A stretch of DNA of 60,610 nucleotides from Escherichia phage Pondi, in the sequence record OP136151.1; one strand, 5' to 3'. How positions within the stretch are numbered: position 1 is the stretch's first letter; the number at the start of each line of letters is the position of its first letter. Positions 7,289-15,946 of the stretch are shown here, piece after piece. Below the pieces are notes generated by a model. The model was not told the origin of the DNA and did not search any database. It was given only the letters and a program-made list of their open reading frames with translations. Both the position numbers and the translations under genes were made by a program.

Positions 7289-7657
7289 TCAGTTTAAACC
7301 AATGATATTACCACGAATGTCGCGCTTGGCTTCTACCAGTTCATGCTCGCGCATACGTCCACGATGCAGCTTAGCGCGTTCCAGGATTTCACCGCCAGCG
7401 CGGAGCACCAGCTTTTTGGCCGCGACAGGTTCTTCCAGATCGGCAATCATCAACGTAGCGCCGGACTCATAGGACACGTCGCCACACAGGATGTTGACGA
7501 TACCACCCTCAATCTCAGCGTTTACACGCCACAGGTAGCCGGAGTATGCGTTATGCAGGCACTCACCAATGATGGAGGCCAGTTCATAGTTTGCAATCTC
7601 GATGGCGTCACTACCTGTACCGCGCGTGTAAATTACTGCATGGTTAACTGTTGTCAT
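7289..7657 (-). CDS. Hypothetical protein, about 122 aa
   Basis: ATG at 7657 (third codon of track ORF, which begins with TTG) with AAGGA upstream. Confidence 0.45.
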   Translation of the reverse strand: MTTVNHAVIYTRGTGSDAIEIANYELASIIGECLHNAYSGYLWRVNAEIEGGIVNILCGDVSYESGATLMIADLEEPVAAKKLVLRAGGEILERAKLHRGRMREHELVEAKRDIRGNIIGLN

Positions 7658-7832
7658 TATCAATATCCTTAGTCCAACGATAGTCGTGACCCGGTAGCGT
7701 CGGCATCTCGGTCTTCACCTTTCCGTTGTCGAAGACGTACACCGCTTCGGGCGTAGTCAGTCGCTTCGGGTCCAGGCGATTCACGATTTCAGTGAAGCTG
7801 CGGGTTGTGTATGAAACTTGACGTCCTGCCAT
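7644..7832 (-). CDS. Hypothetical protein, 62 aa
   Basis: Small ORF with GGAGGT RBS 6 nt upstream of ATG. Confidence 0.45.
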   Translation of the reverse strand: MAGRQVSYTTRSFTEIVNRLDPKRLTTPEAVYVFDNGKVKTEMPTLPGHDYRWTKDIDNDNS

Positions 7833-12550: not shown

Positions 12551-12836
12551 ACCCTGCTCAACTTTTAGTTTTCGCGTAGCGCTGCGTAGATTGGTTACTT
12601 TTTAACCTGCGAAGGTAGGAATCTAAAAGCTAACGACGAGAACTAAAAGCGCGCGAAGATTTCTCGAAGCCTTCTTGAAGAGGCCACCCGCTAGATATTG
12701 CTTGCAGTCACCCTCAATAATTGAGAAACTAATTCTGTGCTTTTTGACCTTTGAATTATTAACAAGCTTTTAGTTAGTTATTATTTACTTCGCGGGTGAA
12801 AAGTAGTTAGTTAAGTATATAAATCTAACTAAAAGC
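12551..12836. repeat. Iteron-like 9-10 bp motif AACTAAAAGC / GCTTTTAGTT in five copies within the long noncoding region
   Basis: Copies read at about 12551, 12621, 12641, 12766 and 12827 in both orientations in a 451-bp gene-free region. Confidence 0.4.
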
Positions 12837-12878
12837 TTGTAAGTTTAAAGAAGCTCAGAAAGCACAGAATTAGTTTCT
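12724..12878. repeat. Composite imperfect palindrome: 20-bp perfect outer inverted repeat (12724..12743 / 12859..12878) and 15-bp perfect inner inverted repeat (12762..12776 / 12826..12840)
   Basis: Arms verified base by base; ends 10 nt upstream of the RBS of the first early gene; candidate origin, operator or terminus-associated structure. Confidence 0.6.
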
Positions 12879-12902
12879 AAATAACCAAAAGGAGTCTACA
12901 AG

Positions 12903-13583
12903 ATGTCAGACGTAAAAGTGCAGGGTGTAATGTTCCTCGATGAAGCTCGCCGTAGAGGCTTCACAACCTACGACGGGAAAGCGTGCCGTAATTGTGGTGG
13001 AGTGCTTCGCTACGTGTCCAATCGGGGATGCGTGGCGTGCAACCTTGAGCATAAGAAAAGCTATGCTGCGTCGGCTGCATTAAAACGTGAGGCTGCTCGC
13101 CAGGTGCGCAACGATGCAGCGGAAGCCGGGGAGAAGCAATATACCGGATCTCCGTGTAAGAAGTGCAACGGTACAGAGCGCTACACTGTCAATGGTGGTT
13201 GTGTGGCTTGCTCTAAGAAACAGGCAACAACCTTAGATAAAGCAAAGCGCGCTAAATATCACTCAACTGATAGCCTGGTTATGTGGGTAAACGAGCCGCC
13301 AGCGCCCAGCGTTGCACATCTATATAAGCTAATCCCTTTCCTGGCCTCCAACCCGGACGGCGGTAACTGGTCGCTACGTTACACCGATGCTCATCACCTT
13401 GCACCTTCAGGCATGAGATTGTTCACGGGGCGTGATGTCCTGGAGCGTCCGCAAATCATGCAGACCATCCGGGCAGACTACACGCTGAAGGGATACCGGG
13501 GCGGACACTTTGACATCGTTCCGCATATCGGCGAGGCCATGACGCAGGCCATCCGCTTAACTAACCTTGCACGGAGTAAATAA
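12903..13583 (+). CDS. Early protein with duplicated zinc-ribbon motifs, 226 aa
   Basis: Two CxxC-x12-CxxC units (CRNCGG...CVAC and CKKCNG...CVAC); AAGGAG RBS; first gene after the noncoding region. Confidence 0.55.
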   Translation: MSDVKVQGVMFLDEARRRGFTTYDGKACRNCGGVLRYVSNRGCVACNLEHKKSYAASAALKREAARQVRNDAAEAGEKQYTGSPCKKCNGTERYTVNGGCVACSKKQATTLDKAKRAKYHSTDSLVMWVNEPPAPSVAHLYKLIPFLASNPDGGNWSLRYTDAHHLAPSGMRLFTGRDVLERPQIMQTIRADYTLKGYRGGHFDIVPHIGEAMTQAIRLTNLARSK

Positions 13584-13945: not shown

Positions 13946-14239
13946 ATGACTAATCAAATTATCTACGCTGAAGACGTGCGCTACTTCCGCAAACTTGCAT
14001 TGCGCCCCACCCTGGCCGCTATCTGTCAGCAAATCTTCGACGCTGGTTTTGATTGCCGCAACCAGTTCGCCGCACGCCGGGTATTATCGGCGCGTGACCT
14101 CGGCTACTGGCAGGAGTTCATCGCCTGCGCATTGCCAAGTGACTGGTTAGTTTGGGCGGCTGAGGACGTGAGCCGCAACCTTGAAACTGAAATGATGGAG
14201 TATTACAGTGACGCCATCACTGCTTTGCGCAAAATATAA
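13946..14239 (+). CDS. Hypothetical early protein, 97 aa
   Basis: ORF in early plus-strand array. Confidence 0.45.
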   Translation: MTNQIIYAEDVRYFRKLALRPTLAAICQQIFDAGFDCRNQFAARRVLSARDLGYWQEFIACALPSDWLVWAAEDVSRNLETEMMEYYSDAITALRKI

Positions 14240-14374
14240 CAGTCGGGTAACCACGGTATTTAAAATCACCCTCAACGGCGGGGAGTCCCTCGCCACTGTA
14301 GTCAGCCGCATTAAAGCCCAGCGTGACCGGGCGCGGCTGGTAGGCATTCACTTAGCTATAGAGGATCTCATCAA

Positions 14375-14653
14375 ATGAAAACATTAAAAGAGTTTTACCA
14401 GGCATACGCAGCATGGCTTGACGCTGGCGCACCGGAAGACCAGCCGTTTAGTCGAGCATATGGGTTGTGCGACAACCTTTTTACTCGGGGTTGCTACGAT
14501 ATACTGCGAGAGTTAAAGGGCCATTTCAAAAGTGAAGGTTATGATCCTGCTTACCCGTTTGGTGGGTCGGAAGTGTTCGAAACTGAAATGGATAACGAAG
14601 AGATGCACCTTAACCCTGAGCGCATCAAGTGGGTGAAAGACCATGCAAAATAA
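14375..14653 (+). CDS. Hypothetical early protein, 92 aa, paralogue A
   Basis: Shares FY.AYAAWLDAGAP...QPF...YPF...NPERIKWVKDHA with the next gene; GAGGA RBS. Confidence 0.55.
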   Translation: MKTLKEFYQAYAAWLDAGAPEDQPFSRAYGLCDNLFTRGCYDILRELKGHFKSEGYDPAYPFGGSEVFETEMDNEEMHLNPERIKWVKDHAK

Positions 14654-14939
14654 AACATTACAGCAATTCTATAACGCTTATGCCGCATGGCTTGACGCTG
14701 GCGCGCCACACAAGCAACCATTCTACCGCGATGCGGGATTGTGTCATAACCTGGGCAAGTTCGGCGGCGACCGTGACGCTTATATCGAGATGGGTCGCCA
14801 GTTTGAAGCGGCTGGACTTGATTACAAGTATCCCTTTAATGACGGTGAGGGGGATTATCTCGTTAAGTCATACGAGAGCCATCACCATATCAACCCTGAG
14901 CGAATCAAGTGGGTGAAAGACCATGCAAACAATCAGTAA
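14643..14939 (+). CDS. Hypothetical early protein, 98 aa, paralogue B
   Basis: Tandem paralogue of 14375..14653; 3' ends of the two genes share a near-identical 38-nt stretch. Confidence 0.55.
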   Translation: MQNKTLQQFYNAYAAWLDAGAPHKQPFYRDAGLCHNLGKFGGDRDAYIEMGRQFEAAGLDYKYPFNDGEGDYLVKSYESHHHINPERIKWVKDHANNQ

Positions 14940-15099
14940 CATGAAATTGAAGTTCAGCGGTCGCACTGTAGCTCTGATTACTACATTGATTAACGGTCGC
15001 ACTATATACCAGGTGTTGAGTAACACCTACGAGCCATCGCAGCGTGACATGTGGATTGATGCGGTCATCGCTAAAATACTGGAGGGTAAATTTAAATGA
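14923..15099 (+). CDS. Hypothetical small protein, 58 aa (below ORF-track cutoff)
   Basis: ATG at 14923 inside the repeated 38-nt stretch; fills gap; stop overlaps next start as ATGA. Confidence 0.4.
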   Translation: MQTISNMKLKFSGRTVALITTLINGRTIYQVLSNTYEPSQRDMWIDAVIAKILEGKFK

Positions 15100-15350
15100 C
15101 AGAGTTCGAGAAGTGGATCAACAACGCCCACATGACGGACAAGGACAGCGACCCGACGCAGCGCGATAAGGCCAATCCTTACACGCATCCTTACACTAGC
15201 GGCGCGTTTGACCTGCTCAACAGTGAGTTAGTCAAAGAGCTATTAGTCAACGCGTGGTTTGCAGGTCATGAAACGTCGCAGTATTCGCCCAACGCTTACG
15301 GTGACGCAAAGCGCTACGCCCGTGAGGTCATCGAGGATTTAACCAAATGA
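15096..15350 (+). CDS. Hypothetical early protein, 84 aa
   Basis: GGAGGG RBS; ATGA overlap with downstream gene. Confidence 0.5.
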   Translation: MTEFEKWINNAHMTDKDSDPTQRDKANPYTHPYTSGAFDLLNSELVKELLVNAWFAGHETSQYSPNAYGDAKRYAREVIEDLTK

Positions 15351-15946
15351 AAACGTTAAGCCACTATCAGAAACTGCGTGAAGATTACGCGTGCATCATC
15401 TCTAAGAACGCGCCAGCCTGGGAGCTAATCGAGGCCATCGACGACCTGATCAAGCTGATGACGTCTGATGACGGTCGTAACATGGTGGACGTTGCGCCGG
15501 GTCTGGTAATCGAGATCCCGACAGGTTGGACGCTGAATAAACACGACGTAGGTTATGTGAAGTTCACATTGCACGATCAGGGCGGTGGACGCGGCGGTAT
15601 TAGCGAGCGTGAAAACTGTTTCGTGACAACGTTCGACAATATTACACTGGGTAATTTTTCGAACGCCCGGAGCGCCTTCGATTGCCTGAGTAAGCACGCT
15701 ATGAACTCTGTCAATCAGCCGCACTTTCTCGGCGTACCGGTAAACCTGCCTAAAGGCTGGGGTATCAGTATCCATCACGACAGCAACACGATCAGCCTGC
15801 TCGACCATAACGGCTACAGGGTTGCTGCCGCATACCAGAAAATTAAAGGTAATTACGGGATCTGGTGGGAAGGTAAATATTATACCACTTTGAAAACTCA
15901 GCGAGAGGCCATCGAATGGCTTAACGATAAGGCTAACATATCATGA
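15347..15946 (+). CDS. Hypothetical early protein, 199 aa
   Basis: GAGGA-N9-ATGAAAAC initiation context; C-terminal part loosely similar to next gene (IPxGW...T..L.D). Confidence 0.5.
   Translation: MKTLSHYQKLREDYACIISKNAPAWELIEAIDDLIKLMTSDDGRNMVDVAPGLVIEIPTGWTLNKHDVGYVKFTLHDQGGGRGGISERENCFVTTFDNITLGNFSNARSAFDCLSKHAMNSVNQPHFLGVPVNLPKGWGISIHHDSNTISLLDHNGYRVAAAYQKIKGNYGIWWEGKYYTTLKTQREAIEWLNDKANIS

Follow-up and report, generated by a model that had tools for sequence, protein, structure and literature searches.

The genome of Escherichia phage Pondi (sequence record OP136151.1), a podovirus of the genus Xuquatrovirus (PMC11990801), carries two small overlapping plus-strand genes whose 3' ends are almost the same over 38 nucleotides (nt), which raises the question of what such a repeat does and how the genes that carry it have evolved. 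We analyzed a stretch of 60,610 nt of this genome (hereafter the window) together with its relatives, and these comparisons indicate that the locus is probably a tandem array of accessory genes that are diversified paralogues of one another, in which the repeat would serve both as the initiation region of the next gene and as a crossover patch for unequal recombination. Both genes are deposited as encoding a 'hypothetical protein'. Paralogue 1 (Pondi_00019, 14375..14653, 92 amino acids [aa]) was assigned from its open reading frame (ORF), its identity to P0024, its phrog_2510 match, and the clustering of gene bodies, which places it in body type delta, while paralogue 2 (Pondi_00020, 14643..14939, 98 aa, body type alpha) was assigned from its ORF, BLASTP, its phrog_2510 match, and an AlphaFold2 model. 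An earlier note, made from the letters of this DNA alone, had described the pair as tandem diversified paralogues, and this is borne out by BLASTP, as the two proteins align end to end with 48 of 93 residues identical (52%, E 5e-29); the likeness spans their full length and not just the repeat. The shared blocks listed in that note (FYxAYAAWLDAGAP, QPF, YPF, and NPERIKWVKDHA) likewise occur in both proteins. At the nucleotide level, the whole genes are just 57% identical and it is against this background that the 3' block stands out.

The first copy of the 38-nt block (14612..14649, plus strand) encodes the residues N-P-E-R-I-K-W-V-K-D-H-A-K of paralogue 1 and holds the Shine-Dalgarno (SD) sequence and ATG of paralogue 2, and the second (14892..14929, plus strand) encodes the same C-terminal helix in paralogue 2 and holds the SD and ATG of the gene to its right, which encodes a 58-aa protein (MQTISN...; 14923..15099, plus strand) and starts inside this terminal junction block. 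Paralogue 2 consequently overlaps paralogue 1 by 11 nt and the 58-aa gene by 17 nt. The two copies match at 37 of 38 positions, with a sole mismatch at 14623 (C) versus 14903 (A) and a perfect run of 26 nt. The earlier note had reported the near-identical repeat, but at 14614-14651 and 14894-14931, which is 2 nt too far right and where only 35 of 38 positions agree; it was correct that each copy contains the start codon of the following gene (14643 for paralogue 2 and 14923 for the 58-aa gene), although it did not recognize the repeat as an initiation region and candidate recombination junction. Within the window the 38-mer occurs at these two sites only, while 100 shuffles gave an expectation of 0. 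Its last 20 nt form a core, TGGGTGAAAGACCATGCAAA, which lies at 14630..14649 in the first copy (SD-like GGGTGA at 14631-14636, ATG at 14643-14645) and at 14910..14929 in the second (GGGTGA at 14911-14916, ATG at 14923-14925), both on the plus strand. The genes also share a weaker 5' block, in which 14372-14448 and 14646-14722 are 73% identical and include a 20-nt perfect match, GCATGGCTTGACGCTGGCGC, encoding A-W-L-D-A-G-A at 14411..14430 of paralogue 1 and at 14685..14704 of paralogue 2 (both plus strand).

The constraint upon the repeat is apparent from related phages. The only isolated relatives of Pondi are PTXU04, with 83% nucleotide identity across this region, and HelliStehle_Bas95 (Bas95), and the addition of eight metagenomic contigs brought the comparison set to 11 Xuquatrovirus-like genomes or contigs with 17 family genes in total; such genomes occur in wastewater and gut metagenomes. 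The core was identical in 13 of the 17 copies, with a 1-base difference in three others and 3 differing bases in the contig L018. The codons AAA, GAC, CAT, and GCA were invariant in all copies that keep the corresponding residues and valine was encoded by GTG 15 times and by GTA twice; the remaining invariant residues of the proteins (F, Y, A, P, G, L, and C) varied freely among two to four synonymous codons. For the Pondi pair, the codons of shared residues were identical in 10 of 11 cases inside the block versus 13 of 35 outside of it (Fisher p = 0.004), and over all divergent pairs the corresponding values were 88% and 55%. Similarly, the proportion of differing synonymous sites (pS) between types was 0.33 in the 3' block, whereas the gene bodies were saturated at 0.75-0.87. 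Because of this codon invariance and the low pS of the block relative to the saturated bodies, selection acts upon the nucleotides of the block themselves.

The frozen positions coincide exactly with the SD, spacer, ATG, and second codon of the next gene. The layout of each junction consists of GGGTGA, a 6-nt A-rich spacer, an ATG formed out of the His-Ala codons CAT-GCA, and CAA as the second codon of the next gene (CAC in one copy), and the stop codon of the upstream gene follows 8 nt past the ATG at internal junctions and 14 nt past it at the terminal junction. The 6-nt distance lies inside the 5-10 nt between SD and start codon that are expected of a translational-coupling junction, and the start codon lies within the end of the upstream ORF. 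The predicted duplex of GGGTGA with the 16S rRNA 3' end has a free energy of -10.4 kcal/mol, while that of the AAGGAG of the block's first gene has -8.2. Thus, the simplest reading of the sequences is that the block is a translational-coupling junction embedded in the codons of a C-terminal helix, the coupling itself being inferred. A programmed frameshift that would fuse paralogues 1 and 2 was also considered and dropped, as paralogue 2 lies in the +1 frame and no slippery heptamer was noticed when the junction was inspected by eye.

Among the relatives, copy number, the comparison proposed in the earlier note, was found to vary. One syntenic site, bordered by a conserved 53-56-aa gene on the left and a conserved 57/58-aa gene on the right, holds three copies in PTXU04, two in Pondi, L003, L010, and L014, and one in Bas95, L008, L013, L018, L022, and L024, such that the eight metagenomic relatives carry one or two copies each. 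Clustering of the gene bodies gave five types that are 31-50% identical to each other: alpha (Pondi_2, PTXU_1, L003_2, L010_1, L013, and L014_1), beta (PTXU_2, Bas95, and L014_2), gamma (PTXU_3, L010_2, and L022), delta (Pondi_1, L008, L024, and L003_1), and epsilon (L018 alone). The body of paralogue 2 is orthologous to PTXU04_00087 (88% aa identity). The multi-copy arrays read delta-alpha in Pondi, alpha-beta-gamma in PTXU04, delta-alpha in L003, alpha-gamma in L010, and alpha-beta in L014, each of which is a subsequence of delta-alpha-beta-gamma. Two further metagenomic contigs, L011 (60,141 bp) and L012, terminate precisely where the first paralogue does at its 3' end. The tandem repeat seems to interrupt assembly, and counts of copies from short-read assemblies may therefore be too low.

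The ends of the genes follow a different rule from their bodies. The terminal tail ATGCAAACAATCAGTAA, giving the gene end ...CATGCAAACAATCAGTAA (HANNQ), is present in 10 of the 11 last copies, with the divergent L018 having a HANS variant, and all terminal copies overlap the downstream 57/58-aa gene, whose start is MQTISN in ten phages and MQIAKL in L018. The internal tail ATGCAAAATAA, giving the gene end ...CATGCAAAATAA (HAK), is present in four of the six internal copies, each overlapping the next paralogue, and the other two have variant tails (the CAC and ACT variants), namely HAQ in PTXU_1 and HAN in L010_1. The 3' tails thereby track the position in the array independently of body type. 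At the other end of the gene, the 5' haplotype KEFYQAY is confined to first copies, where it occurs on delta and alpha bodies alike, and the first 18 nt of the 3' block (N-P-x-R-I/V-x) fall into a small number of haplotypes, including NPERIK, NPLRVQ, and NPLRIQ, whose distribution is independent of body type. Maps of informative sites, from which mosaics were read in L010_1, L014_1, L024, L022, Bas95, and Pondi_2, revealed that L010_1 and L014_1 are chimeras having an alpha body behind a delta-like 5' end, that the Bas95 copy has a terminal-type tail on a beta body, that the gamma body of L022 carries a tail like the one on the beta copy that terminates the L014 array, and that Pondi_2 has the PTXU_1 body but starts and ends like a terminal copy that is not the first. 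The breakpoints of the chimeras fall within the shared conserved blocks.

From these results, a mechanism can be proposed in which the last 20 nt of the block would both encode the W-V-K-D-H-A end of the helix and initiate the next gene, with each gene of the array translationally coupled to the preceding one. Such double duty would freeze the synonymous sites. Since all copies share both the 3' and the 5' blocks, these would in turn serve as short homology patches for unequal homologous recombination, with crossovers inside of them causing the loss or gain of whole cassettes as well as chimeras. Crossovers in the blocks would explain the range of one to three copies, the conserved order, the position-specific ends, and the type-specific bodies. 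The comparative data, from a small and partly non-independent sample, lead us to infer that recombination rather than independent insertion produced the variants. With a single sequence ending one gene, supplying the next with its ribosome-binding site and start, and acting as homology patch, any crossover between copies would yield an intact and expressed array of altered length or composition.

Two other explanations of the repeat deserve consideration. The near-identity of the Pondi copies could be the result of a recent local gene conversion and have no function in itself, an idea that gains some appeal from the fact that both copies carry the same haplotype, GAGCG[C/A]ATCAAG, of the variable 18 nt even though others circulate. 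However, all 17 copies from the 11 phages retain the block, its 20-nt core in particular, 18% of between-genome pairs also have an identity of at least 37/38, and copies within a genome (33.6/38) are no more alike than copies between genomes (32.7/38). Since the block is conserved population-wide, the near-identity in Pondi is not a private conversion event, and we regard this explanation as very unlikely. An even more improbable proposal, to which we would give hardly any credence, is that the repeat acts in cis as a nucleic-acid element (a terminator, RNase site, promoter, protein-binding site, or antisense gene, for instance), rather than being a coding or initiation feature. It would fit nucleotide conservation beyond what the protein sequence needs, minus-strand ORFs whose MVFHPLD... 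reading begins inside both copies, and an exact 25-nt copy of the junction at a gene junction of an unrelated phage (see below), but the frozen positions are accounted for by the SD, spacer, ATG, and second codon, RNA folding of the repeat gave no significant structure (z-scores of -0.38 and +0.89), Rfam had no match to it, and a scan for promoter- or terminator-like sites in it found none. The minus-strand ORFs in question (14513-14644 and 14868-15026) share the peptide MVFHPLD, with which the first of them begins, because both traverse the reverse complement of the 38-nt repeat; we rejected them as genes, as they are mirror-image by-products of the repeat lying antisense to tightly packed genes. 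The best sigma-70-like match in the region (14747-14720, minus strand; ATGACA, 16 nt, TAGAAT; 10/12) is antisense within paralogue 2 and is probably due to chance, because such sites are no more common in the region than in shuffled sequence. The coupled, recombining junction remains our preferred account, and the repeat is probably explained at the DNA level.

We next consider what the array encodes. Both proteins match phrog_2510 over their full length (paralogue 1, E 3.7e-25, residues 2-91; paralogue 2, E 6.3e-27, residues 3-96), with weaker matches to phrog_6418, phrog_2176, and phrog_6323; phrog_2510 has no assigned function, Pfam model, or solved structure, and Pfam, NCBIfam, and PADLOC scans of both paralogues and their neighbors returned noise only. 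An exhaustive profile search collected 2,045 cluster representatives (50% identity) at E <= 1e-3, while scans of viral and metagenome collections with peptide patterns yielded few loci. Among deposited phages, the family occurs at 464 places in 205 records, all of them phages of Proteobacteria, which include Drexlerviridae, N4-like phages, Rhizobium T7-like phages, and others, as well as Phapecoctavirus, whose genomes each hold the family at 3-6 places, in some cases as neighboring genes that overlap by 11 nt. In phAPEC8, for example, five members are found inside 10 kb and two of these are adjacent with an 11-nt overlap (L025 1244-1588 and 1578-1946). A scan of 185,579 bacterial and archaeal genomes gave no close relative, and the family has so far been seen in phage records and phage-like contigs only. 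The AlphaFold2 model of paralogue 2 is confident (predicted local distance difference test [pLDDT] 94.7) and has five helices. Its fold matches in BFVD, with template modeling (TM) scores of up to 0.92, are uncharacterized proteins of Rhizobium, Achromobacter, Delftia, Pectobacterium, and Klebsiella phages; Pfam, PDB-sequence, and fold searches gave no match to any characterized protein, and the sequence and structure searches gave no homology or fold link to a characterized anti-defense or host-takeover protein. The family can thus be described as uncharacterized, phage-restricted proteins of ~95 aa with a predicted five-helix fold.

Within this fold, the conserved parts are helix 1, a long loop at residues 19-34 (GAPxxxPFxRxxGLC), in which the Cys is invariant, the YPF loop, and helix 5, and the variable parts are helices 2-3 and helix 4. 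The ratio of nonsynonymous to synonymous substitution rates (dN/dS) within types is mostly 0.1-0.4, which indicates that these are real genes under purifying selection. Among the alpha genes (window 14643-14939, L001 2206-2493, L003 2501-2797, L010 2501-2785, L013 2501-2788, and L014 2501-2788), the helix 4 segment (alignment columns 68-85) is hypervariable, with a proportion of differing nonsynonymous sites (pN) of 0.40 and a saturated pS of 0.77, and the rest of the protein is nearly identical, which suggests that old allelic helix 4 segments have been exchanged by recombination. Positive selection on this helix cannot be claimed, as its synonymous sites are saturated. Natural fusions of two and three domains, roughly 190-344 aa in length, also exist, including P0121 (199 aa), P0124, and P0126 (344 aa). 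A model of a two-domain fusion was compact (pLDDT 88, predicted TM score [pTM] 0.76), with only two sequences in the alignment of its C-terminal half, and the fusions provide a weak hint that separate tandem products may associate.

Functional data come from a CRISPRi-ART screen of PTXU04, in which the three orthologues, PTXU04_00085, 86, and 87, were scored as 'Not Fit' (PMC11879866, supplementary file 16), meaning that the phage can dispense with them on the laboratory host, and the HHpred annotation given by the authors of that study is 'unknown' for each (PMC11879866). PTXU04_00084, the orthologue of the 58-aa gene, was likewise 'Not Fit', whereas gp92, a putative Cys-rich endonuclease orthologous to the gene at 12903-13583, was 'Fit' and gp83, which has an ambiguous DNA-binding annotation and is orthologous to 15096-15350, was 'Semi-Fit' (PMC11879866); the block of small genes therefore mixes important and dispensable genes. 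Literature searches by PHROG identifier, sequence motifs, and locus tags gave no match, and the papers naming PTXU04, Pondi, or Bas95 assign no function to these proteins. Our best guess from the sequences is that these proteins would interact with the host without being essential, and that a conserved helical core would display variable surfaces formed by helices 2-3 and helix 4, possibly in homo- or hetero-oligomers. The label of early genes would follow from their position downstream of a divergent intergenic region and from analogy with N4-like and T7-like phages. That intergenic region has an imperfect inverted repeat with 58-nt arms (12720-12777 and 12825-12882, 81% complementary, 47 nt between the arms) directly upstream of the first plus-strand gene (12903), and CTAAAAG/CTTTTAG motifs recur across 12560-12840; the inverted repeat could be a regulatory or origin-like element. 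At the left border of the array, the fixed 56-aa gene (14208..14378, plus strand) ends in the codons IEDLIK, which carry a GAGGA SD for paralogue 1, and its stop overlaps the start of paralogue 1 (ATGA at 14375-14378); the 58-aa gene at the right border is fixed in all relatives as well. A 30-nt sequence, AT[A/C]GAGGAT[C/T]T[C/A]A[T/C]CAAATGAAAAC[A/G]TTAA, spans this junction (14358-14387) and recurs with 83% identity at the gene junction 15330-15359. In both, the upstream protein has a C-terminal IEDLxK, GAGGA provides the ribosome-binding site, stop and start overlap as ATGA, and the downstream protein begins with MKTL; the principle is that of the 38-nt block, but between non-paralogous genes.

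How the proteins act can be envisioned in two ways, which are compatible rather than exclusive. They may be early anti-defense or host-takeover effectors, each type neutralizing its own host factor and an arms race driving the diversification of the array; we consider this a tentative possibility. Consistent with it are the dispensability of the orthologues in the laboratory host, the differences in copy number and type content among close relatives, the variability of helices 2-3 and helix 4 upon a conserved core, including the strong divergence of the alpha-type helix 4 between orthologues, the restriction of the family to phages so far, its multi-copy nature, the purifying selection on the genes, and their position in a group of small genes that follows the divergent intergenic region. 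In addition, the Schitoviridae phage Ea9-2 and an Autographiviridae Rhizobium phage both have family members close to the left end of the genome, where early genes are located in N4 and T7. However, the saturated pS of helix 4 points to swapped old alleles rather than demonstrable positive selection, and the one-copy Bas95 is reported to be very sensitive to restriction-modification systems (PMC11990801). DNA mimicry was rejected as a mode of action on the basis of charge, as the proteins are not strongly acidic (isoelectric points of 4.7-8.8). Alternatively, the tandem genes could encode the subunits of one hetero-oligomeric complex, with coupling keeping their stoichiometry, rather than independent effectors. 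The natural two- and three-domain fusions favor this on a Rosetta-stone argument, as do the predicted compactness of the two-domain fusion with its short inter-domain linker and the tight overlap and apparent coupling of neighboring genes, whereas the fusion model comes without an inter-domain error estimate and six of the 11 related phages are single-copy, with varying types present. Consequently, a fixed heteromer is not required, which leaves at most interchangeable homo- or hetero-dimers, and we find a hetero-oligomer, obligate or facultative, rather doubtful.

Returning to a tandem array that varies by unequal recombination at coupling junctions, several points weigh against this account or limit its reach. 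The case for coupling and recombination at these sites comes from sequence comparisons, some of the 11 phages are mutually close, and the arrays behind the order rule number about five and are non-independent. Cassettes inserted independently at a hotspot could give similar patterns, and ongoing homogenization was not seen, given that copies within a genome are not more alike than those between genomes. A perfect run of 26 nt is close to the minimum length at which RecA-type recombination is efficient. As for the proteins, neither sequence nor fold searches gave a homology that would support a function, a 'Not Fit' score from a single laboratory host gives no positive information on function, and knockdown guides hit repeated start regions, such that cross-targeting or redundancy may blur the score.

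The junction is also not confined to this clade. Three IMG/VR contigs of a single sample, L029 (430-449), L031 (1397-1416), and L032, contain the exact 20-nt core; they have ~41% GC, are unrelated to Xuquatrovirus, and share a 25-nt exact match, AAGTGGGTGAAAGACCATGCAAACA, with the terminal junction of Pondi. At this match in L032, a gene for a 64-aa Cys-rich protein ending in ...RRIKWVKDHANR (7607-7801, minus strand) overlaps a gene for a 60-aa protein starting with MQT (7438-7620, minus strand), and both genes are otherwise unrelated to those of Pondi. By a rough estimate, a chance match of 25 nt in a collection of this size is very unlikely, which suggests that the junction block may be transferable on its own. 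In its most far-reaching form, which we consider unlikely, the locus would be a cassette system built upon a new phage-specific fold, in which each body binds a different host target and the block is a dedicated shuffling site that is mobile from phage to phage. If so, the array would be a recombination-driven repertoire of host-interaction modules, for example against an immune sensor or effector, and the block would keep each cassette expressible through its own ribosome-binding site and start codon. More broadly, the locus would provide a clean natural example of accessory-gene variation in a virulent phage, and the comparative data make it best described as an accessory array that probably evolves by unequal crossover at translational-coupling junctions embedded in coding sequence. 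The analysis also flags a large family (~2,000 clusters, multi-copy in many coliphages, with fused forms and a confident predicted fold, and so far found only in phages), for which a tractable system is available, as Pondi, PTXU04, and Bas95 are all cultured (two, three, and one copies, respectively) and a knockdown tool exists for PTXU04.

The array can be related to several known systems. With the PHROG family phrog_2510 it shares the full-length match, while the overlapping SD-ATG junction block is distinct to the Xuquatrovirus clade. Like coupled overlapping genes of the termination-reinitiation type (ATGA or TAATG), it has the downstream SD and ATG inside the last codons of the upstream gene and a stop codon a few nt beyond the start; unlike ordinary coupled genes, it reiterates the junction for each member and conserves it at the nucleotide level across paralogues whose synonymous sites are saturated elsewhere. 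It also resembles multigene families shaped by unequal crossing over (birth-and-death evolution) in its copy variation at one locus, conserved order, and chimeras with breakpoints in conserved segments, but differs from these in that its bodies are not homogenized, its homology patches are 20-38 nt, and it resides in a virulent phage genome. A further parallel is with the PeSL mobile regulatory cassettes of T4-type phages, which are composite promoter-terminator motifs according to the titles of the reports describing them (PMC2839356, Arbiol et al. 2010; PMC4122927, Comeau et al. 2014). PeSLs and the Pondi block are both short conserved repeats at the edges of small, variable genes where the genome is plastic, and in both cases recombination between copies would account for the indels and swaps that distinguish close relatives. 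In the present arrays, the repeat borders every member, one to three copies are found, and chimeras have their breakpoints in the blocks. PeSLs lie between genes, whereas the Pondi block is wholly within coding sequence, lacks a promoter- or terminator-like site or significant fold, and instead carries a ribosome-binding site and start codon that link paralogues rather than unrelated ORFs. By analogy, the PeSL cassette is nevertheless the closest counterpart of the Pondi junction in its apparent mode of working.

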